NCBI GenBank assembly: GCA_032718475.1
Contig: JAUCBJ010000613.1
Span: 1 to 39,084, forward strand
Direction of reading: 5' to 3'
Source of the DNA: Nemertoderma westbladi
Lineage: Eukaryota > Animalia > Xenacoelomorpha
Length of the DNA: 39,084 bases
Numbering within the stretch: position 1 is the stretch's first letter; every line of letters starts with the position of its first letter. Under the pieces are notes generated by a model, which had not been told where the DNA came from, ran no database searches, and saw nothing but the letters and a program-made list of their open reading frames with translations. Of the stretch, positions 422 to 30,187 are shown piece after piece. The position numbers and the translations under genes were made by a program.

Positions 422-3400
422 TTACGTTATGGAGTCCCTAGATATTTGTCGGATTAGGGAAGTGGTCGTAGGAAGAGTATCTTGCCTTCCATAGTTTCCG
501 GACAGTTTTCGGTCTCTTTCCAGTAAACATAAACGACCAGCTGGGCGATTGAGTTGTTGTGTTACTTTCTCCGCTCCCTTGGCCTGTCTAATCTCCGCCG
601 TGGTAAGATGAGGAGGCCATTCTTCTTCTTCTTTACTTAAGAAGTCGGATCCACCTAACCAGCCTGGAGTATCTATCAGTTCTTGAGGAGTTGCTCCTCT
701 GGAAGCGATGTCGGCTGGATTAATCGTCCCAAGGCAATGTCTCCATTGATCTACATTGGAGTTAATATCGTCATTATCTGAGGAGTATGGTGTTCCCTCA
801 GTTGGATCGTCCACATCACTGCTCTCCACTTCCCATTCCTTTACTTGGTATACCTGTTGTTGAGGTAATCTCTCTTTGAGAGTTCTACGGGAAGGGCCAG
901 TGAAGTACCAACCTACTCTAGTTCTTACCGCATAGGTTTGTAGTGGCTGCGGTTGAGCAGGCCGTTTCTCCAATGTCTCGAGCGCCTCATGCGCGTTTTG
1001 GCCGATGAGTATTTGCACTCCAGGATAATCTGTCTGGAATCGAGGTATCTTAAGATGTTGGATGCTCTCATCCTCGTCCCAATTATAAAGGTCTGCTTGG
1101 GTAGTAGCGAAGTTCTTTATAGCCACCATTTTTACTGACCTTATACTTTGTGCTCCTAATTTATCCTGGGGGGTGGACAACGCACCTACATAGTAATCTG
1201 CCGTTAGGGTAGATTTCCAAACCTGCATAATTCCTGACATATTCAATTTAGTCCGGAACTTGGGTTGTCCAGCAAAGATATCTTCGGCTAGTTCTTGATC
1301 GATGAATGTTCCTGTGCTGCCGGAGTCAAGGAGGGCGTTCACTATGTAACTTTTGTTAAGACCGTGAACTCTTACCTGCACTACAGGAAATTCTCTGATT
1401 CCTACGTTGGAAGTTGGAGCTTTCCAAGATGGTTGTTTGGCAAAAGTAGTTGGGGGAAACTCATTGTTGGTGTCCTTTTCATAAGTAAGTGCTCGATACA
1501 CTGCGGTATTGATTAGATAACAGGATTCGTTGGCGTCGGAGAATTCGTCAGTATAGAATCCTTCCATCTCAGATTCTTGATCAGTGTCGTTTACATCACT
1601 GAATTGGACATGTAGTTCGGGCTCACTTACCTGACTCAGTTTGTCTCGTTCGAACTCACTGTGTAACAAGATGTGATGTTTCGCGCCACACTTTGCACAC
1701 TTTATGTCGGAGTAACAGGTTCGCCGTTGGTGTCCTGATCTGAGGCAATTATAGCATAACCGCTTATTCCACAGGACTGTACGTCTGTCTACAAGGGATT
1801 TCTTTAGAAATTCAGCACACGCACTCAAACGGTGGGGCCCGTCGCACAGCGCACATTTTGGTTTGATGTTACTCACCTTAACTTGGTTAACGTTCTGCAC
1901 TCTCGTTCTTTCTTCGGGCTTTCTTCCGTGAATTCTCTTAGGAGACGTAGGAGGAATTGTTATTACCTGTTCTCTCCTGTCACTGGTTCGAGACTTGTAT
2001 TTACTTACGTCTTTATAGGTCTTGTTGTCATAGTAAGATTTTGCTGTGTCTTTCCCGCTGTCCTCTTCTTGAGAAGCTTGGCTTTCGCCGTCGTCAGTAT
2101 AACACACTGGTATTATCCTTCTCCTAGAAACGGGTTTCTCACTTACCTTATTTTCCGATGTTTTCTCTCTGGACTGCCTTATGAGTTGTAATTTTACTTC
2201 ACTATCTAAGAAGGACATGAGATCAGCCATGGTAGGGCTTCGGCGTTGTTGTTCATTCATGTACAACACTTTCTTGTCCCAGCGCGTACATACTCCACCC
2301 TTTGGTAAAGTAGAGACTACGGCTCCAATGACCATGGAACTCTGATATTCATGCGACTTACCTAACCAGTCCAGTTGTCTACAGATCTCTTGAATTTCAT
2401 CGGAAAACTCTATAATCCCGCTACTAAGGAAGTGTCGGGGGGCTACTAATTTTGCATACAAATACTTAGCTATGTTATCCTTGTTACCATACCTGATGTT
2501 TAATGTATCCCAAACTTGTCTTAATCCATCTGGATGTCCAATAAACTTTAACGCCATTAACTTGGGAGGTCCTTCCAAGCACTTGATGAGGAATCTAAGT
2601 TTCTCTCCGTTAGATAGTACAGAGTTCTGTATGCTATCTTTGTAATATTCGTTGAAAGGTAACCATTTCATCTCATCTCCATTGAATTTGACGATCTCTC
2701 CCACTTTGACCGCTTGGCGGGCTTCTGTTCTAGCCATCTGACGCGTAAAGCTTTCTTGGGCCATCGTGTTATTTAATATCGAATTATCGGTATATAAAGT
2801 TCTCGGATCATTATCAGGTCTATAGGGAATATCATTAATAACAGGTCTATAATCACCCTTAATAGGGTTTGCTATAGGAGTTTCAACTTCACTAGCAGTA
2901 TAGATGCGTGTAGGCTCCACACCTTGCGCATGTAATACTTCAGACCTAACAGCTTGACACAATGTTACAGGGGGTATTGGTATGCCCTTTTGGATATTGA
3001 CTAATTTGTCGCGTTCTAGTGCGATACTTTGCTGCACTTCTTGCAACTCTGCTCTACCTTCCCTCACTGTTCCCTTAAGTTGGTGGACAGTCTCCTGCAT
3101 CTGTCCTAGCAGGAGATTCATCCCCCGCCGTCCCTCTTCTACCCACTCAACCGCCGAAGCGGGAGTCGCCAACATAGTAGCGGGCTGACGCGGGACGACG
3201 GGAGACAAATCTTTGATTTCTCTCTCTGCTATCCGGACAGGGATATTCTCTTGGACTGTTCTACCGGGTACAGGCAGTGTAGTACTATGTAAAGGGAATT
3301 TAGAGTTAAGCTCTGGAAGTACAGGGGTCTCTAATACAGGGGTGACTTTGGGAACGACAGGCCTAATTATTTCAGGCACATCAACTATAGTAGGGAGTCT

Positions 3401-3982
3401 TTTGACCTTAATAATTTGGTCTGTAGGTTCTATACTACTCAAGTCTGTGCTAGCTAGTTGTCTTCTAACAGCTGGGGGCAAATCAGGCAATTTGTGACGG
3501 TAAGATGTTTTTCTACGCCTACTTAGATGAGATCTATTTCCTCCGCCTTCAGGATCGGTGGTCTCGCCTTCCTCCGAGGATGTGTATCCCTGGCGCTTGG
3601 GAGTAGATTTTCTCATCATCTGCATTTGATTAGCAGTAAACTGTTTATTTATACTGTCTTGTGTCTCTTGCAGATTTTCCAACTCCAGTTGGGTAGTCTG
3701 CTCAGAGGCTCTCCGTTCTGCTTCTGCCACTGCCTTTGCTGCTTTTCTTTCTGCTTCTGCATCTGCCGCCGCTGCCTTTCTTTCTACTTCTGCTTCTGCC
3801 ATAGCCGCCGCCTTTTGTTCCTCTATCCGTCTTTTATTTATTTGTTCTTCTCGGACTCTAATGAGGCGGAGTTTTTCATCACATTCAGCTTGGTTTGCAG
3901 CTAACATTTCGGCATCGATTGAGTCCAACACAAGCTTGGTTCCTTCACTATTAGGGGAAAGTCCAGACAGCCGTCTCCTCAA
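422..3982 (-). CDS. BEL/Pao Gag-protease polyprotein fused in frame to a C-terminal RNase H remnant (no RT, no integrase in this ORF)
   Basis: N-terminal coiled coil. DUF1759-like capsid region (KFNGDEMKWLPF...LSNGEKLRFLIKCLEG). Three Zn knuckles (CALCDGPHRLSAC, CYNCLRSGHQRRTC, CAKCGAKHHILLH). Aspartic protease ALLDSGSTGTFI...ILIGQN...RTRVGWYFTGP. The Pao RNase H end motif WRHCLGTINPADIASRG...W..G..FL..EEEEWP follows ~50 residues later. Confidence 0.9.
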   Translation of the reverse strand: MRRRLSGLSPNSEGTKLVLDSIDAEMLAANQAECDEKLRLIRVREEQINKRRIEEQKAAAMAEAEVERKAAAADAEAERKAAKAVAEAERRASEQTTQLELENLQETQDSINKQFTANQMQMMRKSTPKRQGYTSSEEGETTDPEGGGNRSHLSRRRKTSYRHKLPDLPPAVRRQLASTDLSSIEPTDQIIKVKRLPTIVDVPEIIRPVVPKVTPVLETPVLPELNSKFPLHSTTLPVPGRTVQENIPVRIAEREIKDLSPVVPRQPATMLATPASAVEWVEEGRRGMNLLLGQMQETVHQLKGTVREGRAELQEVQQSIALERDKLVNIQKGIPIPPVTLCQAVRSEVLHAQGVEPTRIYTASEVETPIANPIKGDYRPVINDIPYRPDNDPRTLYTDNSILNNTMAQESFTRQMARTEARQAVKVGEIVKFNGDEMKWLPFNEYYKDSIQNSVLSNGEKLRFLIKCLEGPPKLMALKFIGHPDGLRQVWDTLNIRYGNKDNIAKYLYAKLVAPRHFLSSGIIEFSDEIQEICRQLDWLGKSHEYQSSMVIGAVVSTLPKGGVCTRWDKKVLYMNEQQRRSPTMADLMSFLDSEVKLQLIRQSREKTSENKVSEKPVSRRRIIPVCYTDDGESQASQEEDSGKDTAKSYYDNKTYKDVSKYKSRTSDRREQVITIPPTSPKRIHGRKPEERTRVQNVNQVKVSNIKPKCALCDGPHRLSACAEFLKKSLVDRRTVLWNKRLCYNCLRSGHQRRTCYSDIKCAKCGAKHHILLHSEFERDKLSQVSEPELHVQFSDVNDTDQESEMEGFYTDEFSDANESCYLINTAVYRALTYEKDTNNEFPPTTFAKQPSWKAPTSNVGIREFPVVQVRVHGLNKSYIVNALLDSGSTGTFIDQELAEDIFAGQPKFRTKLNMSGIMQVWKSTLTADYYVGALSTPQDKLGAQSIRSVKMVAIKNFATTQADLYNWDEDESIQHLKIPRFQTDYPGVQILIGQNAHEALETLEKRPAQPQPLQTYAVRTRVGWYFTGPSRRTLKERLPQQQVYQVKEWEVESSDVDDPTEGTPYSSDNDDINSNVDQWRHCLGTINPADIASRGATPQELIDTPGWLGGSDFLSKEEEEWPPHLTTAEIRQAKGAEKVTQQLNRPAGRLCLLERDRKLSGNYGRQDTLPTTTSLIRQISRDSIT

Positions 3983-4566
3983 CTCTTCGTCTCCTAGGAA
4001 TCACTGATAGTCGGACAAATAAATGTCGATAGCGTCTCTAGTTCGCGGCTTCTCTGCTGATGTTAATTCGCTTTCCACTTCGCTTTCCACCTCGCTTTCC
4101 ACTTCGCTTTCCCCCTCACTTTCCACTTCGCTTTCCACCTCACTTTCCACTTGAGAAGAAGTGGCGTCGGTTGATTCTTCATAGGTTGGCCGCTCATCAT
4201 AAACCGTATCCGCCATCTTCGCTCCGCGTTCGGGCGTCCGCTCAACAGTATCCGAACTACTGGAGCTATCGGGCTGCTGAGAACTAGGTTCTTGGCTAGG
4301 ATGTTGCTGCTGTTTTATAGCTTCTTCTTGATCCCGCTTGACTTGGGGGCCCGAGTGCCTATGGCAGACCAACGGCGCTTCACTAACTTCGCAAATTGCG
4401 AAATCTTTTCTACCAACCTAGGTTCTGACACAACCACTGCAGGGGTTGCCCTTCTTACCGTATGAGGGGTTTCAGACCTCGGTCTGGGATTCTCTACACT
4501 TTGATCTGAGAAACAGGCTGTTGTTTCTAGGAGACTATCTGACAGAGTTTGCCTTGTGTCAGCCAT
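3983..4566 (-). pseudogene. Disrupted N-terminal part of copy A gag (true start probably ATG 4566)
   Basis: ORF 4001-4372 is in frame with 422-3982, separated only by one TGA (4001-4003; YQ*FLGDEELRRRL). ORF 4315-4566 overlaps it in another frame, implying a frameshift. Its start MADTRQTLSDSLL aligns with copy B ISDTKRALSDSLL at 18235. Confidence 0.75.
4067..4152 (-). repeat. 12-bp coding tandem repeat, (ESEV)x~7, in the gag N-terminus
   Basis: Units TTCGCTTTCCAC/CTCGCTTTCCAC on the plus strand; translation VESEVESEVESEGESEVESEVESEVESE. Confidence 0.9.
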
Positions 4567-4950: not shown

Positions 4951-5899
4951 TCAATTATTTTAGAATAATTGAATTTCTGAATATTTTAGGGTTACTTGGT
5001 TACTTTAACTTACTTTGTTACCGTTATTTAAGCATTAGTTCAACTGATATTGAGACCTAGTTATTGTATGGCAGGCCTACTATTTATAAATCGTTTGAGT
5101 TGATTTATAATAGATATATACCCGTTTAAAAGGGGTTTGTCAATATTTGAAATAAATGTTATTATTTCTGGGTGGTCACTACACAGAAGCTGTGCGCTCT
5201 CAGTGAAGTGCTATTTATTGGACACTAAAACAGATAATTCTAATTTACCTAAGTTACTTAATACTACAAATTACGTACGATACGGGTGAGATTAATTCTC
5301 TAATTAAACACAACAAAAATATTACGTACGAATTTTTAGGGTAATTTTACAGGAAGTCTACAAACCAGTCTAACAAAGGGTTAGAATCCGGTTTATTACA
5401 ACGGACAGGGTACTACGGTATTTGAAATAATAAGTAGTAGTAAATACACTGCGTTGTCCAGATAGGAAAATACCACCGCCTGACGACCTATAACCGTATC
5501 GCTATAGGTACTACGTTATGTATCACGGATTGTTCCTACCTAGAAGTTAATTACCGCGGACTACCAGATCCAGCGTGCCTATTAACCACTTTACAACACA
5601 AATATACTGCCTACACACTAATTACTTCGGAAAGCACTGTATACTAAACCCTAAATTAGGTACAAGTACTGGTATAACAAATAATCAGCAGTTAAATATA
5701 CTTGAACTGTTAAAAGAACCACGGCATCTGCTGGAGTGACCAGAGCACAAAGTCACCAGTCTTGTCCTACGCCAAGCAGCCCGTGTAGTACCGGGGTTAA
5801 TTTAACTATAACGGTATGTGTAACAAACACAATTACTGTAGGAATAAACTTGGGGACATGAATGTTGCGAATAATCGCATAAACTCTGAATAATAAATA

Positions 5900-6470
5900 T
5901 TACGCTACCCGTACAGAATACTCAAACAAAATACAAACCAAACGCTGGCAGACTACCACCAAGCCTAAATAAACTACCGTACGTGTAGATTCTGAAATGG
6001 TTAGTTAGTATGCGTTCTAACACGGTAGTACGACTTATTTTTTAAGAGGGGATTGACCTTACAGCATATGGCTGCCCCAACTTACTAACGGCACTTTATC
6101 AGACAAACTCCACACACACAGCAATCTCTTCAGACCTAATAATAGCTAGACAACAATCCAGCCTACAAAATATCTGAGTAATAACTATAACAGTACCTGA
6201 ACAGACCACACAAACAAACACAGGCTAAAACGCTGGCAGACTACGATCAAGCCTAAATAAACTACAGTATATGCAGATTCTGAAATAGTTAGTTAGTATG
6301 CGTTCTAACACGGTAGTACGACTTATTCTTTAAGAGGGGATTGACCTTACAGCATATGGCTGCCCCAACTTACTAACGGCACTTTATCAGACAAACTCTA
6401 CACACGCCGTAATCTCTCCAAACCCAACAACAGTCAGACAGCAGCTCAGCCTACAATTATCTGAACAATC
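5900..6470. repeat. ~288-bp tandem duplication in the copy A leader
   Basis: AACGCTGGCAGACTAC at 5941 and 6229; GTTAGTATGCGTTCTAACACGG at ~6004 and ~6292. Confidence 0.85.
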
Positions 6471-6740: not shown

Positions 6741-6751
6741 ATGACTGTTAT
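6741..6751 (-). promoter_or_regulatory. Primer-binding-site position of copy A (ATAACAGTCAT), complementary to LTR segment 7524-7534
   Basis: Directly follows the LTR end ...GCGCGTACA (6752) on the minus strand. No TGG. Exact 11-nt complement within the LTR. Confidence 0.8.
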
Positions 6752-7603
6752 TGTACGCGCTTTTGAAGACCTTTAGCAGTTTAACCTGCCAAAATTTATA
6801 TGTCTTTTGATTTATAAATATACTTTAGAAGATGACAAATATTTAATACCAATAAACACAACATTAGCAGAAGCCAGCCTAGTGCGCGTCCATTCACCCG
6901 CTGGATAATCCCGGGAGGCTGGATTCTGTCGGCTTAGATTATTATTGCAGTGAAGCTTACGGTATTGTATTATTCGATTGATCGTTAATAATTAATTTCT
7001 GACTAATATTATTCACTTTCGGGAAATATTAACAGTTCCTTTTAGGACGTGGCGCTCTATCTAAGTAAACAGAGATATGACTTATACTAATCACAACGGT
7101 AAGTCGGTAAGGCTTATGATTCACGTATGAGGCGCATTCTTTAGGAAATGCTTAGTTATCAGCCACAATCATGCACACTACCGGTAACGCACAATACTGC
7201 TCACTAATTTGAAGACCGTCAATGAATTTTATCATATATAAAGAGAATAGCAACGGACTCATGTAGGGCTTATCAAATAGCATTAAATTCAATACACACC
7301 ACAATAATATAAGTCGCAATCGCTATATATATAACCCGCCTCTCTAACCTGTAGTGTATCAAGAAAATTGGGAAATTTGGGTTCTTTATAAATGTTCTCC
7401 AAATAATATTCAATCCACTGATATAAGATATGACAACAGTAAAAACATTAAGACGGTAGGTTAAGATATGATATGAACAGATATGTACAGCGATATGCAC
7501 TGATATGGACCGATATGTGCCCGATAACAGTCATACGCTCTATAATCTTAAGCCTACTAATGTTTCTTTCTAGAGCCGTTGTTTCTGGCTTAGACAGCAA
7601 TAA
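6752..7603 (-). repeat. 5' LTR of copy A, distal (R/U5-side) part
   Basis: Reverse-complement homology to ~15255-16091 (e.g. GAGCGCCACGTCCTAAA, ATATTTCCCGAAAGTGAATA, CCAGCGGGTGAATGG); ends in CA. Confidence 0.85.
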
Positions 7604-12750: not shown

Positions 12751-13161
12751 GCAACAAAGTATCAGTAAAAAACTGTAAGACTGAACAATCCCAGTATGAT
12801 CGGCTCAAAGCTCCACATCGACAGAGAGAATCGCTCTGATTGGCTGAAGCCAAACAAAGAACCATGCGTCCAATGGCTGTTTCCATTTAAGCAACCAGCT
12901 GCTAGATGTCGTAATCTGAATCATCACGGCTAAGCTGTGTAAAAGTATTTGCCGTATTGCGGGTTTTTTGCCTTACCATGTCCGCTAAAACACGTATATA
13001 GCAGAATGACTTTTATGTCCGTTAAAACACCTGTAACGGTACCTTGCGGGCGAGGGGAATATATATACAGTTAGAGAACCTTTTTTAGAGTATTCCAGCG
13101 CCTGGGGGGAAACTGGATTGCGAAGCAAAGGGGCCAGTTATATCCCACAGAAGCTTTTACA
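12751..13161 (-). repeat. 5' LTR of copy A, proximal (U3) part
   Basis: First ~90 nt match the copy B LTR start (TGTAAAAGCTT.TGTGGGATATAACTGGCCC...GGCGCTGGAATACTCTAAAAA). CCAAT and TCAGT occur at equivalent positions. Confidence 0.85.
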
Positions 13162-14879: not shown

Positions 14880-16091
14880 TGTAAAAGCTTTTGTGGGATA
14901 TAACTGGCCCTTTGCTCCGCAATCCAGTTCCCCCCCCCAAGGCGCTGGAATACTCTAAAAAGCTCCCTAACTCAAAGGATGAAAGCTACCGGCTGATTGG
15001 CTGATTTGCCTAGCGACGGCCTCTTTGTTACGTTCGATCGGCCAACCAGAGCTATAACAACAGAGTATGCAACCAGAGCAACCGAGCGGAGTGACTCATT
15101 TTGTGTGCTGGCCAAGGGCTGCAAAAACCCTGATAGTTAGGCATTTAGACATTCGTGGAACCTGTGAAATCTGATGCTCTGCCAATGAGAGCTTTTCCTT
15201 TCTGTGTTGAAATCTACCTGCAGCAGCTCACAGGGTTCAGTGTGTTGGTTTTTCCAGAGCCTAGAAACATCGGCCGTGGAATATTTCTGAATTATTCCAA
15301 CATTAGAACGTCTTTAATTATAAGAACACATAACTGTTACCGGCACGGCACGGCACGGTACAGCGGTACGAGACACTAAGAACACATAACGGTATGGTAC
15401 GTATTGCACATTATTTACTGCTATTGCTGTTTGTTATTAAATGTATCATTCGTTTGCATATTGTTATTTGGAGAATAACTATAAACGATCAGAAACCCCG
15501 ATCTTCTTGATACACTAAGGTTAGAGAGACCGGCTACATATAGCAATTGTGACTTATATTATCATGGTTTGTAGTGAATTGAATGCTATTTTATAGGCCC
15601 TACAAATGTCGGTTGCTATTCTCTTTATATATGATTAAAATCAGTGACTATCGGCAATTCAGTGTGCAGCGGTGTGCAATAGTCTGTATGTGCTTGTCCG
15701 CGTAACAAAGCATCTCCTAAAGAATACGCTTTATGTGTAACTTATAATCCATTCCGCTGTGTTTAGTGTAAGCCATAGCTCTGTTTATATAGATAGAGCG
15801 CCACGTCCTAAAGGAACTGCTAATATTTCCCGAAAGTGAATAATATTTGTCAGACATTATATATTAACGATCAATCGAATAGTACGGTAGGCCTGCACCG
15901 CAATCAAATTAAAGCATCCGAATCCAGTCTCCCGGGTATATCCAGCGGGTGAATGGTCGCGCATAGACTGGCTTCGGCTAATGTTGGATTTATTTGTCTC
16001 AAATACTTGTCATAGGCTAAAGTCAATTTATAACCTAGAAGACATATAGATTTGGCGGGTTAAACTGCCAAAGGTCTTAAAAGCGCGAACA
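14880..16091 (+). repeat. 5' LTR of copy B (1212 bp)
   Basis: TGTAAAAGC...GCGCGAACA; direct repeat of 26781-27996. Confidence 0.95.
15182..15241 (+). promoter_or_regulatory. Candidate LTR promoter: CCAAT box and TCAGT initiator-like motif
   Basis: CCAAT at 15182 and TCAGT at 15237. Copy A has the same pair with similar spacing (12843 and 12784, minus) in otherwise diverged U3. Confidence 0.45.
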
Positions 16092-16102
16092 GTAACAGTT
16101 AT
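16092..16102 (+). promoter_or_regulatory. Primer-binding-site position of copy B (GTAACAGTTAT), complementary to LTR segment 15330-15340
   Basis: Abuts the LTR terminal CA. Exact reverse complement ATAACTGTTAC at 15330-15340, and at 27235-27245 in the 3' LTR. Confidence 0.8.
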
Positions 16103-16369
16103 TGCTTCTTGATTGCGGCGTAAGCAATCAAGTTGATAGTACCGGTCGACCGGTAACCAGTAGGCCTGACTGCCTGATCATCCGGACCGGTACTTACTTA
16201 CAGTACGGGTACAGCAGTACTATTTCGATTGTGATATTGTATATTGTGGGCTGCTAGGGGATTAGGGATTGATCACCCCTCATTCCTTTGTATAGTTTAC
16301 TTATTTCTGTCGGTTTTATTTACTAGTAGGCTAATATTGAGCAGAAGGCGTGTAAGCCTGCTCAGATTG

Positions 16370-16950
16370 TACAGATAATTTGTAGGCTAGACTGTTGTCT
16401 AACTGTTGTTAAGTCTGAACGGATTGCAGTGCATGTAGAGTGTATGTCCGATAAAGTGCCGGTTAGAAATGTAGGGGCAGCCAGAGCTGTAAGGTAAATC
16501 CCCCACCGAAAGAATAAGTCGTACTACTAGGTTAGAACGCATACTAACTAACCATTTCGGAGTCTGTATGTCCTGTAGTTTATTTAGGCTTAATAGTAGT
16601 CTGCCAGCGTTTGGTCTGTATTTTGTTTGTGTAGTTTGTACGGGTAGCGTAATATTTCTTACTTAGATAATTTGTAGGCTGGATTTTGCCTAGCTGTTAT
16701 TAGGTCTGAGGAGATTTCGGTGTGTGTAGAGTATATGTCCGATAAAGTGCCAGTTGGGAATGTAGGGGCTTCCAGTGCTGTGAGGCAAACCCCCTGTGAA
16801 AGAATAAGTCGTACTACTAGGTTAGAACGCATACTAACTAACCATTTCGGAGTCTGCATATACCGTAGTTTGTTTAGGCTTGATAGTAGTCTGTCAGTAT
16901 TTCGTCTGCATTTTGTTTGAGTAGTTTGTACGCGTAGCGTAATATTTATT
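16370..16950 (+). repeat. ~290-bp tandem duplication in the copy B leader
   Basis: GTACTACTAGGTTAGAACGC at 16521 and 16811. Confidence 0.85.
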
Positions 16951-18234
16951 ATTCAGAGTTTATGCGATTATTCGCAACATTCATTCCCCAAGTTTATTCC
17001 TACAGTAATTGTGTTTGTTATACATACCGTTATAGTTAAACTAACTCCGGTACTACATCAGGGCTGCTTGGCGTAGGTAAAGACTGGAGATTTTATGCTT
17101 TGGTCACTCCGGCAGATACCGTGGTTCTTTTAGCTGTTCAAGTATTTTTAACGACTGATTATTTGTTGTACAAGTACTTGTACCTAATTTAGGGTTTATT
17201 GTACAGTGCTTTCCGAAGGTAATTAGCGTGTAGGCAGTATATTTGTGTTGTAAAGTGGTTAATAGGCACGTTGGTTCTGGTAGACCGCGGTAATTAACTT
17301 CTAGGTAGGGACACTCCGTGATACATAACGTAGTACCTATAGCGATACGGCTATAGGTCGTCAGACGGTGGTATTTTCCTATCTGGACAACGCAGTATAT
17401 TTACTACTACTTATTATTTTCAAATACCGTAGTAACCTGTCCGTTGTAATAACCAGATATTCTAACCCTTTGTTAGGCTGGTTAGTAGACTTCTTGTAAA
17501 ATTACCCTAAAAATTCGTATTTGTGTATTTGTAATTTTTTGTGTTTATTTAGAGATTGTAATCTCACCCGATTTGTACGTAATTTTTAGTATTAAGTAAC
17601 TTAGGTAAATTAGAATTATTTGTTTTAGTGTCCAACAAGTAACACTCCACTGAGAGCGCACCGCTTCTGTGTAGTGACTCCCCCCAGAAATAATAACATT
17701 TATTTCAAATATTGACAAAAACCCATTTTAACGGGTATATATATTATAAATCAACTCAAACGATTTATAAATAGTAGGCCTGCCATACAACAACTAGGTC
17801 TCAATATCAGTTGGACTACTGCTCAAATAACGGTAATAAAGTAAGTTAAAGTAACCAAGTAACCCCTAAAATTTCAGAAATTCAATTATTCTAAAATAAT
17901 TGACATACCGGTATTTACAATAGGCTTATTATATTTATTTCTATAAATTTTAGGCTGAAATTATACCGGTATTCTGTAATTAATTCTAGTCTGTAATTAT
18001 ACTTATATATATATATTATAAGTGTAAGCTGCATACCGGTATTCTGTGACAAACCTAGTCTGTAATAATACTTATATATACTATAAGCATACCGGTATTC
18101 TAATATATTGTATATATATCACGTTACATAGAGTAACGATATCGGTAATTAATTACTAGGCTAACAGTGATACTGAATTACTAGACTTGCTTTAACTGTA
18201 ATATAGCAGTAGGCATTCAACTGTACAATCAAAC

Positions 18235-21200
18235 ATATCTGACACAAAACGGGCACTGTCAGATAGTCTTTTGAAAGGTGTTAGAATGAGTCTTCGACTT
18301 GGACAGTGTCTTGAAAGGATAGAAGACAGAAAAGCAGCAGCAGCGGCAGCTGCAGAAGCGGAAAGAAAAGTAGCAGCGGCAGAAGCGGAAAGAAAAGCGG
18401 CAGAGGCAGTGGCAGAAGCAGACTTGAGGAGACAAACCAGAAGACAGTTATTTGCCTCCTCCGATGAAGGTGATATAAGAGATCCCGAAAGTAGAGGTAA
18501 TAAATCTCGTTCAAGCAGGCGTAGAAGAATGCCACACTGTCCGAAGTTACCTAATTTGCCTCCTGCGGTGAGACTAGCTAGCACAGACTTAGGTAGTACA
18601 GAACCCACAGACCAAATTATTACAGTAGAAAGACTCCCTACTATAGTAGATGAGCCTGAAATAATTAGGCCTGTTCTCAAAGACACCCCTGCGGTGATAG
18701 AGACACCTGTACTCCCAGAACCTACCTCTAAATTCCCTTTGCACAGCACGAAACTACCTGTGCCCAGTAGGACTGTTCCCGAGTCCGAACCCATCCTGGA
18801 CGCCGAGCGAGATATTAAGAATTTATCGCCCGTCGTCTCTCGCTTGCCCGCTACTACGTTGGCGACTCCCGCTTCGGCGGTCGAGTGGGTAGCTGAGGGA
18901 CGACGGGAGATGAGTCTCCTGCTCGGGCAGCTGAGGGAACATTGTAAATGTTCCTCCCAGCAGGTCCGGGAGTTGGAAGGGACTGTTCAGCAGTTAAAGG
19001 GAGCAGTAAGAGAGGGTAGGTTAGCGTTGCAAGAAGTGCAGCAAAGTATCGCGTTAGAACGCGATAAGTTAGTAAATTTACAAAAGGGTATACCACCACC
19101 CTCTGTAACAATGTGTCAACCTGTTAGGTCTGAAGTATTTCATGCGCAAGGTGTGGAGCCTACACGCATCTATACTGTTAGTGTTAGTGAAGTAGAAACT
19201 CCTATAGTAAACCCTATTAAGGGTAATTATAAACCTGTTGACAGTGATATTCCATATAGACTTGATAATAATCCGAGAAATTTATATACCGATAACTCGA
19301 TATTAAATAACACGATGGCCCAAGAAAGCTTTACGCGTCAGATGGCTAGAACAGAAGCCCGCCAAGCGGTCAAAGTGGGAGAGATCGTCAAATTCAATGG
19401 AGATGAGATGAAATGGTTACCTTTCAATGAATATTACAAAGATAACATACAGAACTCCGTGTTATCTAACGGAGAAAAGCTTAGATTCCTCATTGAGTGC
19501 TTGGAGGGATCTCCCAAGTTAATGGCGTTAAAGTTTATTGGACATCCAGATGGATTAAGACAAGTTTGGGATACAATAAACATCAGGTATGGTAATAGGA
19601 CTAACATAGCTAGGTATTTGTATGCAAAATTAATGGCGCCCCGAAAGTTTCTTAGCAGCGGGATTATAGAGTTTTCCGACGAAATTCAGGAGATCTGTAG
19701 ACAGCTAGATTGGTTAGGTAAGTCTCATGAATACCAGAATTCTATGGTTGTAGGAGCCTTAGCATCAACTCTGCCAAAGGGTGGAGTAGGTACACGCTGG
19801 GACAAGACAGTGTTATATATGATGGAACAACAGCAACGAGACCCTACCATGGCTGATCTCATGTCATTCTTGGATGGCGAAGTGAAATTACAGCTCATAA
19901 AGCAGTCCAGAGAGAGGACACCGGAAAACAAGGTTATTTGAGAAACCCGTCTCTAGGAGAAAGGTAACACCAGTGTGTTATACAGACGACGGCGAAAGCC
20001 AGACTTCTCAAGGAGAGGATAGCGGGAAAGACACTGAAAGATCTTACTATGACAACAAAGCGACTAAGGACGTAAGTAAATTCAAGTCTCGAACCAATGA
20101 CAGGAGAGAACAGGTAAGAAAAACTCCTCCTACGTCTCCCAAGAGAATTCAGGTGAGAAAGCCCGAGGAAAGAACGAGCGTGCACCACACAGCACATGTT
20201 AAAGTAAGTAACATCAAGCCCAAATGTGTGTTGTGCGACGGGCCCCACCGTTTAAATGAGTGTAATGAATTCCTAAAGAAATCATTAAAGGATAGACGTG
20301 AAGTCATGTGGGATAAGCGGTTGTGTTATAATTGTCTCAGACGAGGACACCAACGGCGAACCTGTTACTCCGACGCAAGGTGTGCGAAGTGCGGCGCGAA
20401 ACATCATATTTTGTTGCACACCGAATTCGAAAGAAATAGTCCGAGTCAGGTGAGTGATTCCGAACTACATGTCCAATTCAGTGATGTGAACGACACTGAT
20501 CAATCTGAGATGGAAGGATTCTATACGGATGAGTTCTCCGACGAAAACGAATCCTGTTACATGATAAATACCGCAGTGTATCGAGCACTCACTTATGAAA
20601 AAGATACAGAAAGTGACCTCACTCTAACTACTTCTGATCGACAACCATCTTGGAAAGCGCCAACTTCCAATGTAGGGATTAGAGAATTTCCTGTGGTACA
20701 GATAAGGGTCCACGGACCAAAAAGGAGTTATGTAGTGAACGCCCTCCTTGACTCCGGTAGTACAGGAACATTCATCGACAAAGAGCTAGCCGAAGACATA
20801 TTTGCTGGACAACCCAAGTTCCGAACTAAGCTAAACATGTCAGGAATTATGCAGGTTTGGAAATCTACAGTAACAGCGGATTATTATGTAGGTGCGTTGT
20901 CCACCCCCCAGGACGAACTAGGAGAACATAGCATAAGGTCAGTGAAAATGGTGGCAATAAAGAACTTCGCTACCACCCAAGTGGAACCTTATAACTGGGA
21001 TGAGGACGATTTCACCCAGCAGTTTGAAATACCTAGATTCAACACCGATTACCCTGGAGTCCAAATACTCATCGGTCAAAATGCGCATGAAGCGCTCGAG
21101 ACATTGGAGAAACGGCCTGCTCAACCGCAACCTCTACAAGTTTATGCGGGAAGAACTAGAGTAGGTTGGTACTTTACTGGCCCTTCTCGTAGAACTCTTA

Positions 21201-21651
21201 TGGAAAGATTACCAAAAGAACAGGTATATCAATTAAGTGAACGGGAAGTGGAGAGCAGTGAAGTTGACGACCCAACTGAGGGAACACCATACTCCTCAGA
21301 TAATGACGACATCAACTCCAATGAAGATCAATAGAGACATTGCCCCGAGACGATCAATCTAGCCGACATCGCTTCCGGAGGAGCAACTCCTCAAGAACTT
21401 ACAGATACTCCAAACCTGTTAGGTGGACCCAACTTCCTAAGTAAAGAAGATGAATGGCCTCCTCAGCTTACCCCGGTGAAGATTAGACAGGCCAAGGGAG
21501 CAGAGAAAGTAACACAACCACTCAATCGCCCAGCTGGTCGTTTATGTTTACCGGAAAGAGACTGAAAACTGTCCGGAAACTATGGAAGACAAGATACTCT
21601 TCCCACGACCACCTCCCTAATCCAACAAATATCTAGGGACTCCATAACGTA
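18235..21651 (+). pseudogene. Copy B Gag-protease-RNase H remnant, disrupted (ORFs 18271-19941 and 19973-21334)
   Basis: Co-linear with the copy A protein. Start codon is ATA at 18235, there is a 1-bp frameshift near 19937, TGG>TAG at 21332-21334 (DQ*RHC), and a further stop near 21563. Confidence 0.9.
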
Positions 21652-22169
21652 ACAACATACGGAGTGGGTGTGTGACTATATTATTTTATATTTATTTTTA
21701 TTATTTATATTATGTATGTATTATTAGGTAATTTTATTATAATCGTTTTCTTTAATTTTATTTAGTAGAATGTTATTTAGTGATTATTTAGTAGATCAGT
21801 GCAATATATTAGTGTTTATTACTTAATTACTTATATATTATATTTAGTGCGACGGCGAGAAATAATTATTTTTCTCTTTCCTTGCTGCCCGTATTACATT
21901 ACGAATACGTAACTACAGTAAGATGAAATGTCCGTACTTATTAAAGTACAATAAAGCCACTACTATATACAAGTATTATTGGTAGGCAGAGTATTAGGAA
22001 TGCAAAGTTCAGATCCTCGTGTCTCGGCTAAACCAAGCTCTGGGTAGACCTTGGAAACGACTTGCCTCTTCACACTGACATTGCTTCGTGCGATATTGCT
22101 CTCATACCGTATATTAAATAATACATATAGTAGCGTGATGTACCTTTAACAGCAGCGTAAAACGCAAAA

Positions 22170-22485
22170 TAAATCTGTTAAACCCTTTGACCATCTGCAA
22201 TTCTAGTCGATTAAGATATCGCGGCACCCACCGATATACTTGAAAGACAAAATTCTAGAATCAGTGGTTAACGTCCCCAGACAAGTTCTGGAATAAATTG
22301 GTGCCCATCTCAAATATTAATTATTTAATATTTACAAATCTATAAATCAAAATCTGTAAAATTCAGATCCTTTAACAATTCTAGTCGATTAAGATATCGT
22401 AGCACTTACCGATACTCTTAAAAGACAATTTTCATAGAATTAAGGATCCTATGTCCCCAGACCTGCTCTGGAATCAAATTGTGTC
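22170..22485 (+). repeat. Diverged ~178-bp tandem duplication in the copy B 3' internal region
   Basis: CAATTCTAGTCGATTAAGATATCG and GTCCCCAGAC each occur twice, ~178 bp apart. Confidence 0.75.
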
Positions 22486-22916
22486 AATTGTACTATCAAA
22501 TAATAATATTTCAGGGAATAAATTTAAATTCATATTTTAATGAATTTAATAAATTGTCATTCTGTGCAATTTATAACATTCCCAAAATCCCATTAATTAA
22601 TAGATCACGGGAGCGGAGATTCATCCTATTAAGTGTGTTAGAGTGTGAGAATCTCCCATGTATGAGTCAATAGCCGATAAAATTTATAAAATCATATATA
22701 AACGAGATATTGGACCATTAAAGAATTACTATTAAATAGCATCCCAGATCTGTATGCATGAGAATTACCCTAATTCTACCGCTAGCTTTCCATAATGTCA
22801 CCATGGCAACAACCACGCTAGAATTAGAAGCGAGTTAACAGAACAATAAAAAGCTTGCTCATTGAATAGCATACGGAATAAATAGCACACCGCTAGTATC
22901 CAAGGATACATAATAA

Positions 22917-24783
22917 CACGAAGTGGGGCCTTCGCGCAGCACGTGAAATGAGTTAATGCTAAGTATCAACTCGAAAGGATTATAAAAACATAGGAGAAGA
23001 TTTTCCCGGAAAACGTTAACCCTCTAGCGGGAGACTGGGTAACTGAAGAAGGAAGGATTAGTTTCCCTACAAAGCCACAGCCTATGGTCTATTACATATC
23101 TGCCAAATTTCAGCATAAATGGATTAAAAGCAAAGAAATGGGAGGACATTTAACATTTAGACATGTGGCCCTCTAGCAGGAGACTATTGCTCTGATGGTG
23201 TCTGAAAGTCTCTCAAACGTCTCAACTTTTGATCATATTGATGCCTACAAATTTTCAACTTGGCAGCTTTAAATTCGACAAAGTTATAAGCATGTCAATA
23301 TCATAACGAAGACAACGATTTCACTTTCAGACATTTGGCCCTCTAGCGGCAGACTGGAGAACTGCAGATGGATTCGCCTCCTTTGAAAGTCACAGCTACT
23401 GGTCTAATACATATCTGCCAAGTTTCAGCTTAAACGGATTAAAAGCAAAGAAATGGGAGGGCATTTAATGTTTAGACATGTGGCCCTCTAGCGGGAGACC
23501 ATTGCACTGATGGTGTCTGAAAGTCTCTCAAAAATCTCAACTTTAGCTCATATTGATACCTACAAATTTTCAACTTGGCAGCTTTAAATCCAACAAAGTT
23601 ATTAGCATGTCAAAATCGTAACAACAACAACGATTTCACTTTCAGACCTTTGGCCCTCTAGCGGCAGACTGGAGAACTGCAGATGGATTCGCCTCCTTTG
23701 AAAGTCACAGCTAATGGTCTAATACATATCTGCCAAGTTTCAGCTTAAACGGATTAAAAGCAAAGAAATGGGAGGGCATTTAATGTTTAGACATGTGGCC
23801 CTCTAGCGGGAGACCATTGCACTGATGGTGTCTGAAAGTCTCTCAAAAATCTCAACTTTAGCTCATATTGATACCTACAAATTTTCAACTTGGCAGCTTT
23901 AAATCCGACAAAGTTATTAGCATGTCAAAATCGTAACAACGACAACGATTTCACTTTCAGACCTTTGGCCCTCTAGTGGCAGACTGGAGAACTGCAGATG
24001 GATTCGCCTCCTTTGAAAGTCACAGCTAATGGTCTAATACATATCTGCCAAGTTTCAGCTTAAACGGATTAAAAGCAAAGAAATGGGAGGGCATTTAATG
24101 TTTAGACATGTGGCCCTCTAGCGGGAGACCATTGCACTGATGGTGTCTGAAAGTCTCTCAAAAATCTCAACTTTTGCTCATATTGATACCTACAAATTTT
24201 CAACTTGGCAGCTTTAAATCCGACAAAGTTATTAGCATGTCAAAATCGTAACGACGACGACGACGACAACGACGACGACGACGACGACGACAACGACGAC
24301 GACGACAACTATTTGCATAAATTGACCCACCCCCTAACAGTGTCAATTCGCTAAGGCTCCGCCAACTTCGTAGCGGCAGACTGGAGAACTGCAGATGGAT
24401 TCGCCTCCTTTGAAAGTCACAGCTAATGGTCTAATACATATCTGCCAAGTTTCAGCTTAAACGGATTAAAAGCAAAGAAATGGGAGGGCATTTAATGTTT
24501 AGACATGTGGCCCTCTAGCGGGAGACCATTGCACTGATGGTGTCTGAAAGTCTCTCAAAAATCTCAACTTTTGCTCATATTGATACCTACAAATTTTCAA
24601 CTTGGCAGCTTTAAATCCGACAAAGTTATTAGCATGTCAAAATCGTAACGACGACGACGACGACAACGACGACGACGACGACGCGACGACGACAACGACG
24701 ACGACGACAACTATTTGCATAAATTGACCCACCCCCTAACAGTGTCAATTCGCTAAGGCTCCGCCAACTTCGTGGCTCGCCCC
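22917..24783. mobile_element. Helentron/HINE-like non-autonomous element with an internal 315-bp satellite and (GAC)n microsatellite, nested in copy B
   Basis: Starts CACGAAGTGGGGCCTTCGCGCAGCACG and ends CGCTAAGGCTCCGCCAACTTCGTGGCTCGCCCC (CACGAAGT/ACTTCGTG inverted). Unit starts at 23341, 23656 and 23971 (period 315, subunits 145+170). The last unit plus terminus is duplicated at 24372-24783. Confidence 0.7.
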
Positions 24784-25178
24784 ACAACGTGACATTCTGG
24801 AAGGCACTTGACTAACGGACAAATGACCCGAATGTGTGATAGAATGTGTACCATTTGTGACAGTTACGTGGAATTTGTGCGTTTGTAGGTGAATGTTACT
24901 ACTAAGGTGTGTTTACAGTAGCGAGTCGCAATTGTGAAAGTAACCCTAACTCTCCAGTAAGAACCTGAAGTATATCTAAGCCTTTGGGACGGACGGTGGA
25001 GTGGCTCGTGCTGGTTGTTGTAGTCATTGTGCAGCTACGACGTTGGCGATAGGCACATCGGCGAAAGTACACCAGCGCTGAGGATCTCGCACTCTCCGGG
25101 GGCAGAGAGGGGTAGGCAGCGACGCCCGCTCGCCTAAATATAAACTCATTATAATATGGATAAACTTATATAGCAGAT

Positions 25179-26754
25179 ATGATTGAGTTGATAGATGATG
25201 ATCTTGGTATCAGGGAGCGATATACTCTACCTTTACAAGCGTTTGTTGATAGCTTGATACGCGGTGACGCTGGTCCAACTACTACGGAGGACGATGGTCG
25301 TTATATCTAACGGCCAATCTCCCGGGAGCAACTTGCGCGTGGGTTGGACTGTAGAAAATTTACCGCTCGCTATACGCATCGTAATGGTATGTATATGGAC
25401 TTCTTAACTACTGGTCATCCTATCGACCTACATGATACGAACGATATAGACACCAAAAGGGAAATGGTTTTATTTAAATATCATACCCAGCGGAAGCGGA
25501 ACGATAAACTGAGACTCGAACACGAAAATTCTATTCGAAACCGACTCGAAAGTGAAGATGTTGAAGAGCCGGATAAACGCAGCGACTTCACCAAAATATC
25601 TGGAATTCTTGAGAGAAACATATCTCAATATTACCAGTCAACAGAATCTAGAAACTCGATATCCTCCAAGTATACATCATGACCGCATGGTAGAACTCAA
25701 ACGGCTCTATTCCACTATGATGTATCTTACCGCTGATCGACCGCTGCCTGTTGCACCGGATAGCTTCGAACGGATGGAGGAGTATTGTGAACTGGAGAAA
25801 GATCACTCGAGTTTCCCCTACAAGACGTGCGTCTTTGGTGTTGTTGCGATGGATGCCCTAGACCCAACCAACAAACGGAAAGACCTAAACATCCGTGGCG
25901 ACGTTGTATTAAACACGGTTTTACTCGCTATATTTACGGGAGTTTCGAGCGAAATTTGTTTGACGTATCACCTACGCTCGTTCGACTCAGACGATCCTTA
26001 AATAAACCAATGATCAGAGTTCCGGAATACTCGATCAGACCTCCTCATTCCCTAGTGAGACCTCAGACTCTTGATCCTATTAGTATGACGCATCCTCCCG
26101 AGCTGTACTCACTGTTCAAAGATCTAGTGTTACCTGAACAATTAGTCGGTGGCACCCCGGTTGTGGGCTTCCTAGATATTAGCCCATCTTACTTAGCCGT
26201 ATTGGGACGTGGACACCTAATATCGCCATTCAACCGTATAGTCGTCCCAGTCTAACGCGATACAACCCTTCATCAAGGTGGAGGAGAGCGTTGTACGAAA
26301 CGAGTTAAACGCTATTCTACAAAGATCAGAAAGGGAACCTGCGTTTGTTCAGATAAACGTAAGTTGTAACAGCAAGTCCAAGCGATAAACGAATTGGCTT
26401 TATCTCAGTTCGATTGGGAAATCCAGAATCTCTAAGACGATATTGAGCTTGGATGACCCTCTTCTCGGCGAGAGTTTTGGACGAACGTATCCAACGATGA
26501 GCGGAGGAAAATCAGCTCGAGGAGAAGCATATCGAAACGGCGGATACCCCGACTATAATCCTACACCTTCTGATGCAATCATATTGCACCCTTCATCCAG
26601 GAGTTATATAGCCCTCCTCGTAAAGTGGCTCCCCCCAAAGAGAAAAGCACTCTTACTAGCCTCAAAAAACTGCGTAAACGCCGTCCGCGTAAGAAAGACT
26701 AACTGTTTAGAGTATTTTTATATTTTAGAAACTGTGATTTTGTATATTTTATAG
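25179..26754 (+). pseudogene. Decayed extra ORF (~520 codons) of unknown function in the env position of copy B
   Basis: Chain of overlapping sense-strand ORFs (25179 in frame with 25344-25682; 25552-26001; 25827-26255; 26443-26754), joinable with three frameshifts and two stops. Ends 26 bp before the 3' LTR. Confidence 0.55.
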
Positions 26755-26772
26755 ACTTAAATCCCATTTTCT

Positions 26773-26780
26773 GGGAGCGG
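26773..26780 (+). promoter_or_regulatory. Polypurine tract (GGGAGCGG)
   Basis: Purine-rich run directly 5' of the 3' LTR TG. Confidence 0.6.
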
Positions 26781-27996
26781 TGTAAAAGCTTTTGTGGGAT
26801 ATAACTGGCCCTTTGCTCCGCAATCCAGTTCCCCCCCCCCCCCAAGGCGCTGGAATACTCTAAAAAGCTCCCTAACTCAAAGGATGAAAGCTACCGGCTG
26901 ATTGGCTGATTTGCCTAGCGACGGCCTCTTTGTTACGTTCGATCGGCCAACCAGAGCTATAACAACAGAGTATGCAACCAGAGCAACCGAGCGGAGTGAC
27001 TCATTTTGTGTGCTGGCCAAGGGCTGCAAAAACCCTGATAGTTAGGCATTTAGACATTCGTGGAACCTGTGGAATCTGATGCTCTGCCAATGAGAGCTTT
27101 TCCTTTCTGTGTTGAAATCTACCTGCAGCAGCTCACAGGGTTCAGTGTGTTGGTTTTTCCAGAGCCTAGAAACATCGGCCGTGGAATATTTCTGAATTAT
27201 TCCAACATTAGAACGTCTTTAATTATAAGAACACATAACTGTTACCGGCACGGCACGGCACGGTACAGCGGTAAGAGACACTAAGAACACATAACGGTAC
27301 GGTACGTATTGCACATTATTTACTGCTATTGCTGTTTGTTATTAAATGTATCATTCGTTTGCATATTGTTATTTGGAGAATAACTATAAACGATCAGAAA
27401 CCCCGATCTTCTTGATACACTAAGGTTAGAGAGACCGGCTACATATAGCAATTGTGACTTATATTATCGTGGTTTGTAGTGAATTGAATGCTATTTTATA
27501 GGCCCTACAAATGTCGGTTGCTATTCTCTTTATATATGATTAAAATCAGTGACTATCGGCAATTCAGTGTGCAGCGGTGTGCAATAGTCTGTATGTGCTT
27601 GTCCGCGTAACAAAGCATCTCCTAAAGAATGCGCCTTATGTGTAACTTATAATCCATTCCGTTGTGTTTAGTGTAAGCCATAGCTCTGTTTATATAGATA
27701 GAGCGCCACGTCCTAAAGGAACTGCTAATATTTCCCGAAAGTGAATAATATTTGTCAGACATTATATATTAACGATCAATCGAATAGTACGGTAGGCCTG
27801 CACCGCAATCAAATTAAAGCATCCGAATCCAGTCTCCCGGGTATATCCAGCGGGTGAATGGTCGCGCATAGACTGGCTTCGGCTAATGTTGGATTTATTT
27901 GTCTCAAATACTTGTCATAGGCTAAAGTCAATTTATAACCTAGAAGACATATAGATTTGGCGGGTTAAACTGCCAAAGGTCTTAAAAGCGCGAACA
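26781..27996 (+). repeat. 3' LTR of copy B (1216 bp)
   Basis: By manual comparison it differs from the 5' LTR by 4 extra C in the C-run and about 7 substitutions. Confidence 0.95.
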
Positions 27997-28024
27997 GTGC
28001 TATTTAATTGGTAGCCGTAATTAA

Positions 28025-28936
28025 AGGGGGAGGGGGGGGGGGGATACAGTAGCACCCCCTATTTTGGAAATTGCCAAAAAAAAATTTTATTCTATCATGT
28101 GCCGAATTTAATGGAGATTTCAAATCTGCAAGCAGTTTTCTCATATTTTTTCTCAAACTCAAGTTATTACCCAAAATATAAGATCTGATTTTTAGTCTGA
28201 TTCTTGAAAAGCCCTCGAGCAGCACTATATTTTGCTATTGTACGGGGCCCTTTTCATAAAAAAAGTCTCTCACGGTACAGAAATGAATAAAATTACTAGA
28301 AAGTTTTTTACCAGTTATACGTTTAGCAAGCATGAAAAATTTCGTTGAATTTCGTTTATTTTTGACAAAGTTATTGTTGAACATAGAAAAATAGTATTAT
28401 CTAAATTAGCGGGAAGGTTTGAATTGTTCCTTAAACTTTAAACACCCATATCTCAGAATGACGCTCTTCATGAAAAAGGCTATTTCTCCGCCAATTTTAA
28501 CTGAAATGGTTGAAATTTGGGACACTTGTTAAGATTACCCTTCTTCAGACTTCTTCTGAACAAATTTGGTTGGAAATGCCCTGGAGCCTTTTTATATCAA
28601 AAAGGCCAAAAAGAAGCCCTTTTTAGGGGCCTTTTTCTTCTAAAAAGGCTCCAGAGCATTTGAGGCAAAATTTGTTCGGAAGAATTGGATGCAGGGTTCT
28701 TCTGAACTTATATTCCAAATTTCGACAAATTTCAACAAATATTAGTGGAGAAATAGCCCTTTGCGCAAAAAGGCACTTTTGGCCATTACGGAGCCATTTT
28801 GGGCCAATTTTAAAATATTTGGTTTAGGTTATGCTCACACAGCCCAGATGATGTTTAGTAGCACAAAAAATAATTTTCATCCAATTTTATGGTCCAGAGA
28901 CACAAAAATGTGAGGTTTAATGTGCCCCCCCCCCCC
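28025..28936. mobile_element. Non-autonomous DNA transposon, Kolobok-like (TTAA-flanked, G-run/C-run termini) with an internal inverted repeat
   Basis: TTAA-AGGGGG... at 28021 and ...CCCCCC-TTAA at 28937-28940. Imperfect internal arms (GGCTATTTCTCC/GGAGAAATAGCC; CTGGAGCCTTTTT/AAAAAGGCTCCAG) centred near 28620. Confidence 0.55.
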
Positions 28937-29078
28937 TTAATGTCTTTATAGATATTGTATTAATACGGTGTGGATTCACATTGACTCTCGTGGTGGCCGA
29001 CGACCACAACGTATCTCTTACTCTTCTACATACTGTATTATACAGAAAGTAATGGAATGTTATATTTTAATCTCTTAC

Positions 29079-29911: not shown

Positions 29912-30187
29912 CTCAAATATGAGAAATTGATGGAATAAGTGAATTTTTATAAATGCAATACATAAGCACATAAAAACGAGCACAGTGAATAAGGTTTACT
30001 GAAATCAACAAGGGTCTTTAAAGCTTAATTTATGTGCCATTTTGACAAATGATATAAAGTTGTTACAGTACGGTACTGTATGTATTATCTATGTAGCATA
30101 TGCTTAGGTAGGCCATAACGCTATACCAAGTGCAAGTGGGTTATTTGTAGCGCTAAAATACGAGGATATCAGCAGAGCCAATAAGTA

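Follow-up and report, generated by a model that had tools for sequence, protein, structure and literature searches.

The window, a 39,084-nt stretch of Nemertoderma westbladi DNA (contig JAUCBJ010000613.1 of assembly GCA_032718475.1, positions 1-39,084, forward strand), contains two copies, A and B, of a BEL/Pao LTR retrotransposon family. Copy B (14880-27996) is a young element that has retained gag and protease, while its reverse transcriptase (RT) and integrase have been deleted. It has the TG...CA LTRs, the polypurine tract, and the short target duplication of BEL/Pao elements, and its two LTRs are 99.1% identical, differing by seven substitutions and one homopolymer indel. The 5' LTR of copy A is intact only from about 7590 downwards. 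The main features of both copies are as follows.

422..4000 (-): copy A, open frame of gag, protease, and RNase H scrap, 1192 codons, internal deletion as in copy B
6752..7590 (-): copy A, surviving 3' part of the 5' LTR, 78% identity to copy B over 678 nt
13069..13161 (-): first 93 nt of the family LTR, 88.5% identity
14875..14879 (+): copy B, left target-site duplication GTGCT, 5 bp, read from the sequence
14880..16091 (+): copy B, 5' LTR, TG...CA, 1212 bp, 99.1% identity to 26781-27996
18202..21334 (+): copy B, gag (DUF1759, CCHC knuckles) and aspartic protease in two overlapping frames, dN/dS of about 0.2 against copy A
21335..21470 (+): copy B, C-terminal scrap of RNase H fused to the protease; RT, integrase, and the bulk of RNase H are missing
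26770..26780 (+): copy B, polypurine tract with a CGG end, preceding the 3' LTR and resembling the GGGGCCGG tracts of other BEL/Pao loci
26781..27996 (+): copy B, 3' LTR, with a second copy of the 11-mer described below at 27235-27245
27997..28001 (+): copy B, right target-site duplication GTGCT, read from the sequence

The segment at 13069-13161 is perhaps the 5' end of copy A, split off by later insertions.

The gag domain PF03564 was identified at an E-value of 6e-12 in both copies, and the RNase H scrap was of the BEL/Pao type, at 37-50% identity. All five matches of a word search were BEL/Pao polyproteins (22-33% identity), each with PF05380, PF03564, and PF18701. An exhaustive protein search returned 10825 proteins at an E-value of 0.001, the best 150 of which had 24-38% identity, and no relative exceeded 29% identity across the aligned gag-protease columns. 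In pol, the protease is followed by the RNase H scrap; RT and integrase are deleted, so that no RT tree exists for the element, and clade placement of the family yielded a long branch in the tree and overlapping profile scores. Chromovirus domains (Ty3/gypsy RT, integrase with a chromodomain) were not found in either copy, and all domains found were BEL/Pao. A helper element was sought with a family-specific LTR motif, which had no match in the JGI metagenomes or IMG/VR; likewise, no match was found for a BEL alignment in IMG/VR, or for Rfam models over 14880-18300.

Synonymous divergence between the copies was about 0.51 (dS), with a dN/dS of about 0.2 in gag-protease. The deletion from the protease to the end of RNase H is identical in the two, with the same junction, and both lack RT and integrase. 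Because of the divergence, the low dN/dS, and the common deletion junction, the family is considered a long-lived non-autonomous lineage that has kept its particle genes, with gag-protease under purifying selection. Copy B was inserted recently, presumably with help in trans.

Additional features were observed within and around the elements. Both copies have a two-copy direct repeat of 290 bp within a 2-kb 5' leader (16373-16957 and 5885-6464). The 3' interior of copy B includes a 315-bp tandem array with (ACG)n runs (23020-24776) and three overlapping frames without a Pfam or Atlas match (25311-26255), possibly a decayed accessory gene; an Atlas comparison of the frame at 25513-25998 gave no usable match. 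Elsewhere, the window includes an intronless deoxyhypusine synthase frame nearest to human-type solved structures (PF01916, 33400-34539, plus strand), which is consistent with an animal host, a major facilitator transporter frame (29075-29995, minus strand), a frame judged by eye to be non-LTR reverse transcriptase-like (35251-36687, minus strand), and an imperfect palindrome of 290 bp (28474-28762).

The primer-binding site and its match in the LTR

A first-pass annotation of this DNA had claimed that the primer-binding site (PBS) of copy B is the reverse complement of a segment of its own LTR, and that in copy A both sites had changed at two positions with pairing kept. The sequence bears out both claims.

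6741..6751 (-): copy A, PBS ATAACAGTCAT
7524..7534 (-): copy A, putative self-primer ATGACTGTTAT
15330..15340 (+): copy B, putative self-primer of 11 nt, ATAACTGTTAC, exact reverse complement of the PBS
16092..16102 (+): copy B, PBS GTAACAGTTAT, without TGG, flush with the LTR and directly after its terminal CA at 16090-16091

The LTR sites of the two copies are homologous in the global A/B alignment, and the two positions that differ on each side are mirrored; G-U pairs are absent from the match in both copies. The longest match between PBS and LTR is exactly 11 nt in each copy and begins at the first base after the LTR, as claimed. The reported absence of a TGG-type PBS was confirmed as well: no TGG occurs within 150 nt of the LTR, and the first lies at 156 nt in copy B and 197 nt in copy A. 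Neither copy has the PBS of the ICTV profile, which spans 18 nt and pairs with the 3' end of a tRNA, and no tRNA genes were found in the window or in the 82 BEL/Pao loci described below. As in the Tf1/sushi elements, the PBS is complementary to the element's own LTR and lacks a TGG.

Shuffling the bases of the LTR 20000 times yielded the 11-mer in 11 cases, and 118 of the 37764 11-mers of the window had a reverse complement within the preceding 1212 nt. When offsets of 0-3 were allowed, the chance of a match was 0.0015. A chance match, or the relic of a single template-switch event without a current role, is barely credible, although only two phased copies bear on it: a single copy would match by chance with a probability of 0.0006-0.003, depending on the null used, mirrored changes at both positions under independent drift would contribute a further factor of about 0.002 (a rough figure), and the match was kept across a dS of 0.5 while the adjacent 50 nt are 36% identical.

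Another explanation is that the primer is a small RNA of another kind, such as a fragment of a host tRNA, the 11-mer in the LTR being a structural mask over the PBS. Internal fragments of tRNAs serve as primers in some nematode BEL/Pao elements. The two changes in the PBS are transitions, and a single fixed primer with U and G at these positions could therefore pair with both variants through G-U pairs. Additionally, tRNA priming is given for Belpaoviridae in the ICTV profile (PMC8742986), and half-tRNA primers are known in Ty1/copia, according to the accessible part of PMC6317226. However, a match of 11 nt that is exact, flush, and free of G-U pairs in both copies would then call for a separate cause. 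This explanation also does not predict, from a fixed set of tRNAs, that the PBSs of 15 other families (see below) differ from one another while each fits its own LTR junction. Priming by such a fragment is accordingly regarded as improbable.

Predicted RNA structure and family variation around the primer

Further pairings were predicted in the LTR and leader RNA of both copies.

15731..15748 (+): anti-primer segment, predicted to pair with 15317-15333 (16 bp in copy B)
15898..15918 (+): U5 arm of the outer duplex (U5-leader type), partner 16103-16118, p 0.03 (copy B) and 0.02 (copy A)
15954..15962 (+): U5 arm of the inner duplex, partner 16083-16091 (reaching the terminal CA), with a single two-sided change relative to copy A
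16108..16132 (+): local hairpin after the PBS, competing for bases of the outer duplex, pair probability 0.92 (copy B) and 0.96 (copy A)

The outer and inner duplexes each have a two-sided change between A and B, and such changes cannot be generated by copying of the primer into the PBS. By energy alone the inner duplex was not significant (p 0.17 in B, 0.22 in A). The helix between 15317-15333 and 15731-15748 has three two-sided changes within its 8-bp core. Three helices of at least 8 bp with a two-sided change, counting the primer:PBS helix itself, were shared by the two copies, against a null mean of 0.3, and none of 60 shuffles reached three. The top-ranked partners of the primer, the LTR end, the post-PBS segment, and the segment upstream of the primer were homologous in A and B. 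Local minimum-energy folds included the outer and inner stems, with the PBS open in copy B and nearly open in copy A (z -2.5 and -2.7), while the inner stem was missing from the centroid fold of copy A. The flanking duplexes that form the 'pretzel' of Tf1/sushi elements are thus predicted in both copies; the outer stem was significant in just one of 12 other BEL/Pao loci.

Nested folds of the whole leader were not used as a test, given that the structure is pseudoknotted and the outcome shifted with the choice of ends. For example, the primer:PBS probability in copy B was 0.9 with one choice of 3' end and 0.0-0.35 with others, and in copy A it fell from 1.0 to 0.1-0.2 when at least 25 nt were added upstream. 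A further helix of 6 bp that would extend the pairing past the 11-mer (15320-15326 with 16106-16113) was not relied on, as stronger partners compete for it.

Variation within the family was examined in contigs from four public DNA runs of three studies (X1-X4), one of which may be the window's own source. These contigs are short and unphased and represent many variant copies; A and B are the only phased copies.

15297..15340 (+): family-conserved island, -33 to +11 from the primer start, delimited by contig depth and loose ends in four runs
15341..15440 (+): hypervariable linker right after the primer, A/B identity 36% and then 48% in 50-nt bins, with a drop in contig depth

In X1, the depth of family contigs fell from 26898 to 1682 (about 16-fold) within 8 nt past 15340, and X2-X4 behaved alike. 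Upstream of about 15297, family members also diverge. Copies A and B have in common an AT-rich octamer at -31/-30, and a CA is found at 15329-15330 in copy B. The island likely comprises a core promoter followed by the primer, and a primer at the 5' end of the transcript is suggested at the DNA level by its limits of -33 and +11 and by the CA at its start.

Both T and C occur at 15340 in the public contigs, and those departing from the reference after 15339 read T in all four runs. At the opposite end of the pairing, both A and G occur at 16092, with A accounting for most of the depth in X1-X3 and for none in X4. From this excess of A, T would be expected at 15340 in most copies. The unphased proportions in X1, from copy sets that are not comparable, were about half C at 15340 and about 9% G at 16092. 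This mismatch may be explained by the differing copy sets together with the presence of two LTRs per element, and copies with a terminal C-A mismatch may be present in the family.

The 3' part of the LTR (15774-16085) reached an A/B identity of up to 98%, and its summed depth was about 100-fold above that of U3. The public contigs suggest a high-copy family with an exchangeable U3. No conserved polyadenylation hexamer was found in the A/B LTR alignment. Two splice-site-like motifs are kept in A and B, namely AG/GTTAGA at 15519/15520 (15500-15524) and a pyrimidine-rich TAG at 15792 (15778-15792). Contig depth rises at both, and they could bound a 273-nt intron in R/U5.

Self-complementary primer-binding sites in other BEL/Pao loci

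By alignment of 15 related polyproteins, 82 further BEL/Pao loci were fetched, which are not close relatives of the window family. Thirteen of their contigs (L070-L082) come from the genome bins of bacteria; they are BEL/Pao elements of animals and likely represent host contamination. A scan blind to LTR ends was applied to 53 loci with pol, after 29 loci without usable upstream sequence had been removed by eye. A PBS complementary over at least 11 nt to an exon-exon junction in the locus's own LTR was found in 16 of the 53, compared with five in reversed controls, two in complemented controls, and zero to four across 30 mismatched pairings. One or two of the 16 positive loci, such as L071, are probably due to chance. 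Among 11 loci with a definable LTR end, six had a spliced match of 11-15 nt (0-1 of 100 shuffles each), and L062 had a TGG-type PBS. In L050, a 15-nt spliced match was found at offset 4, while in L078 and L081, judged by eye, a match required either a mismatch or a larger offset.

The spliced-primer loci (L002, L004, L012, L013, L017, L018, L037, L050, L054, L057, L059, L069, L075, L076, L077, and L079) have a PBS of 11-15 nt, donors of GTAAGT or GTGAGT, and a CA at the primer start. A GT-AG intron splits the primer, leaving 3-10 nt in exon 1, and the PBS begins 0-4 nt past the LTR. Together with L078, these loci represent 15 RT families of 44-80% identity that form one clade with a support of 0.98 (FastTree), and the TGG-type loci L051 and L062 fall outside it. 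Inside the clade, L022 has a contiguous self-match of 10 nt and an LTR of 177 bp (1685-1861), possibly through intron loss.

The window family resembles these loci in having no TGG, a PBS that pairs with its own LTR RNA, and a CA at the primer start, but its primer is contiguous, as in L022, whereas theirs is split by an intron. The loop between primer and LTR end is also longer, at 751 nt in copy B versus 44-193 nt in the spliced-primer elements. A CA within -2 to +1 of the first primer base was found in 14 of 14 families (background 0.30), where this interval was set after the data had been seen and the families, counted without L078, L081, L071, and the duplicates L059 and L076, are related to each other. 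In the window family, copy B has its CA exactly at the first primer base, and copy A reads TA there.

The first-pass annotation had cautioned that R and U5 would be long (about 760 nt) and that a TCAGT upstream might be the transcription start, with the primer then internal. Both observations are correct, as the primer start lies 762 nt from the LTR end and the TCAGT is at 15237-15241. A non-5'-terminal self-primer could arise from such an upstream start, with the duplex cut out of a longer leader, or from a splice that joins 15335 and an acceptor-like site at 15519. As a rule, the primers of the other BEL/Pao loci are spliced, and the 15335-15519 splice would give a match of 10 of 11 nt. However, its donor would be GTTAC or GTTAT, while all 14 families use GTAAGT or GTGAGT; a 10-nt spliced match occurred in 12 of 100 shuffles; and base 11 co-varies with the PBS in the contiguous form only. 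As for an internal primer, the helix of 15317-15333 with 15731-15748 involves bases upstream of the primer and has the two-sided changes noted above, which keeps this caution alive, but the 3' LTR copy is an alternative place for this helix to form, and the conserved island is limited to -33 to +11. The CA at the primer start in the 14 families and in copy B weakens the caution further, since it favours a primer at the RNA 5' end over an upstream start. A primer in any of these non-terminal forms is considered unlikely.

Proposed mechanism and comparison with known systems

The first-pass proposal that this BEL/Pao family self-primes was supported by the predicted flanking duplexes, by conservation that ends at the primer 3' end, and by the spliced form in 15 RT families. 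Judged from DNA sequence, self-priming of the family in some form appears very probable. The preferred reading, in which a non-autonomous BEL/Pao element would prime its minus strand with its own RNA in a Tf1-like geometry, is given a probability of roughly 0.6. Transcription would begin at 15330 or no more than about 2 nt away from it. The first 11 RNA bases would bind the PBS, which would be flanked by two U5 stems, and a helper RT provided in trans would then use its RNase H to cut after base 11 and would extend the cut 3' end into the terminal CA. The element has no RT of its own, and the acting enzyme is presumed to be BEL/Pao. The match between the two sites would be maintained by selection and by the primer being copied back into the PBS. 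The bases upstream of the primer would be transcribed in the 3' LTR copy, and their 16-bp pairing with 15731-15748 could conceal the second 11-mer there; the helix fits either this role or an upstream start.

A variant of self-priming would draw the LTR-PBS module or the helper RT from a Tf1/sushi-type Ty3/gypsy element, and would add nothing new about the BEL/Pao enzyme. A target duplication of 5 bp does not discriminate between the two superfamilies. Neither copy has RT or integrase, the helper search in the JGI metagenomes and IMG/VR gave no match, and the PBS of copy A begins with ATAAC like that of Tf1, as stated in the accessible part of PMC11042837. Yet gag, protease, and the RNase H scrap are BEL/Pao in both copies, with gag-protease under purifying selection; the polypurine tract is like those of BEL/Pao loci; and BEL/Pao elements that do bear pol have self-complementary PBSs. 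Such a borrowed module or helper is thus held to be very unlikely.

More broadly, it is reasonably probable that tRNA-independent priming is widespread in Belpaoviridae, with the capped RNA supplying roughly its first 11 bases as primer, which would be contiguous in the window family and spliced from a first exon of 3-10 nt in a large clade of aquatic elements. In the window family, the two copies of the primer would be distinguished by an anti-primer helix able to form completely in the 3' LTR copy alone. Belpaoviridae are defined by host-tRNA-primed replication that is otherwise poorly understood, and a self-primed branch, if true, would correct this definition. It would also add a third LTR superfamily to those in which self-priming originated or persisted, and would mean that PBS-based annotation undercounts self-primed BEL/Pao elements. 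Since the tRNA-type (L051, L062), contiguous, and spliced forms share one superfamily, the origin of tRNA priming versus self-priming can be tested by comparison.

No report of self-priming in BEL/Pao surfaced in the literature searched, in line with the first-pass annotation, which was aware of no such description; most subscription papers, supplements, Repbase, and GyDB lay outside that scope, and their PBS tables or entries could already note self-complementary PBSs. No passage on a PBS, tRNA, or priming was found in PMC554778 and PMC3118150, nor a report of BEL/Pao self-priming in the accessible parts of PMC3601003, PMC4600332, and PMC8220671.

The window element has the traits of Belpaoviridae (Semotivirus), including a DUF1759 gag with CCHC knuckles, a BEL-type protease, a C-terminal RNase H motif, TG...CA LTRs of 1.2 kb, a polypurine tract, and an animal host. 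It differs in being non-autonomous and in lacking the 18-nt PBS for host tRNA-Arg or tRNA-Gly given in the ICTV profile (PMC8742986).

The class of mechanism is already known from Tf1; its occurrence in BEL/Pao would be new, but not a new category. In the accessible text of the sources on Tf1, self-priming requires three duplexes, in which the primer pairs with the PBS and the sequence on either side of the PBS pairs with a part of the LTR that lies downstream of the primer (bioRxiv 10.1101/2022.12.06.519325); the cut falls between bases 11 and 12 (PMC7175516); and about half of the cDNAs carry a copied PBS (PMC11042837). According to the same partial sources, Tf1/Tf2 of Schizosaccharomyces pombe, Tj1, and Tosmo1-3 of the Tf1/sushi group likewise have a flush 11-nt PBS complementary to their own LTR, and the two flanking duplexes of this group are matched by those predicted in copies A and B, as is the ATAAC start of the Tf1 PBS by that of copy A. 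However, Tf1/sushi elements are Ty3/gypsy chromoviruses, whereas the window element has BEL/Pao proteins and no RT, integrase, or chromodomain. The window element also has a 751-nt loop between primer and LTR end, and its start and cleavage sites are putative. Other tRNA-less sites are described for Skipper and bivalve TRIMs in the available portions of PMC5006619 and PMC6934838. Self-priming has also been predicted from LTR-PBS complementarity in the Ty1/copia TAR lineage (Houba, Osr-1), which lies outside Ty3/gypsy, and in the plant Tcn1 clade (PMC6317226, accessible part). These belong to other superfamilies and plant hosts, in contrast to the animal BEL/Pao family described here, and they indicate, as far as that source extends, that self-priming is not unique to Tf1/sushi.
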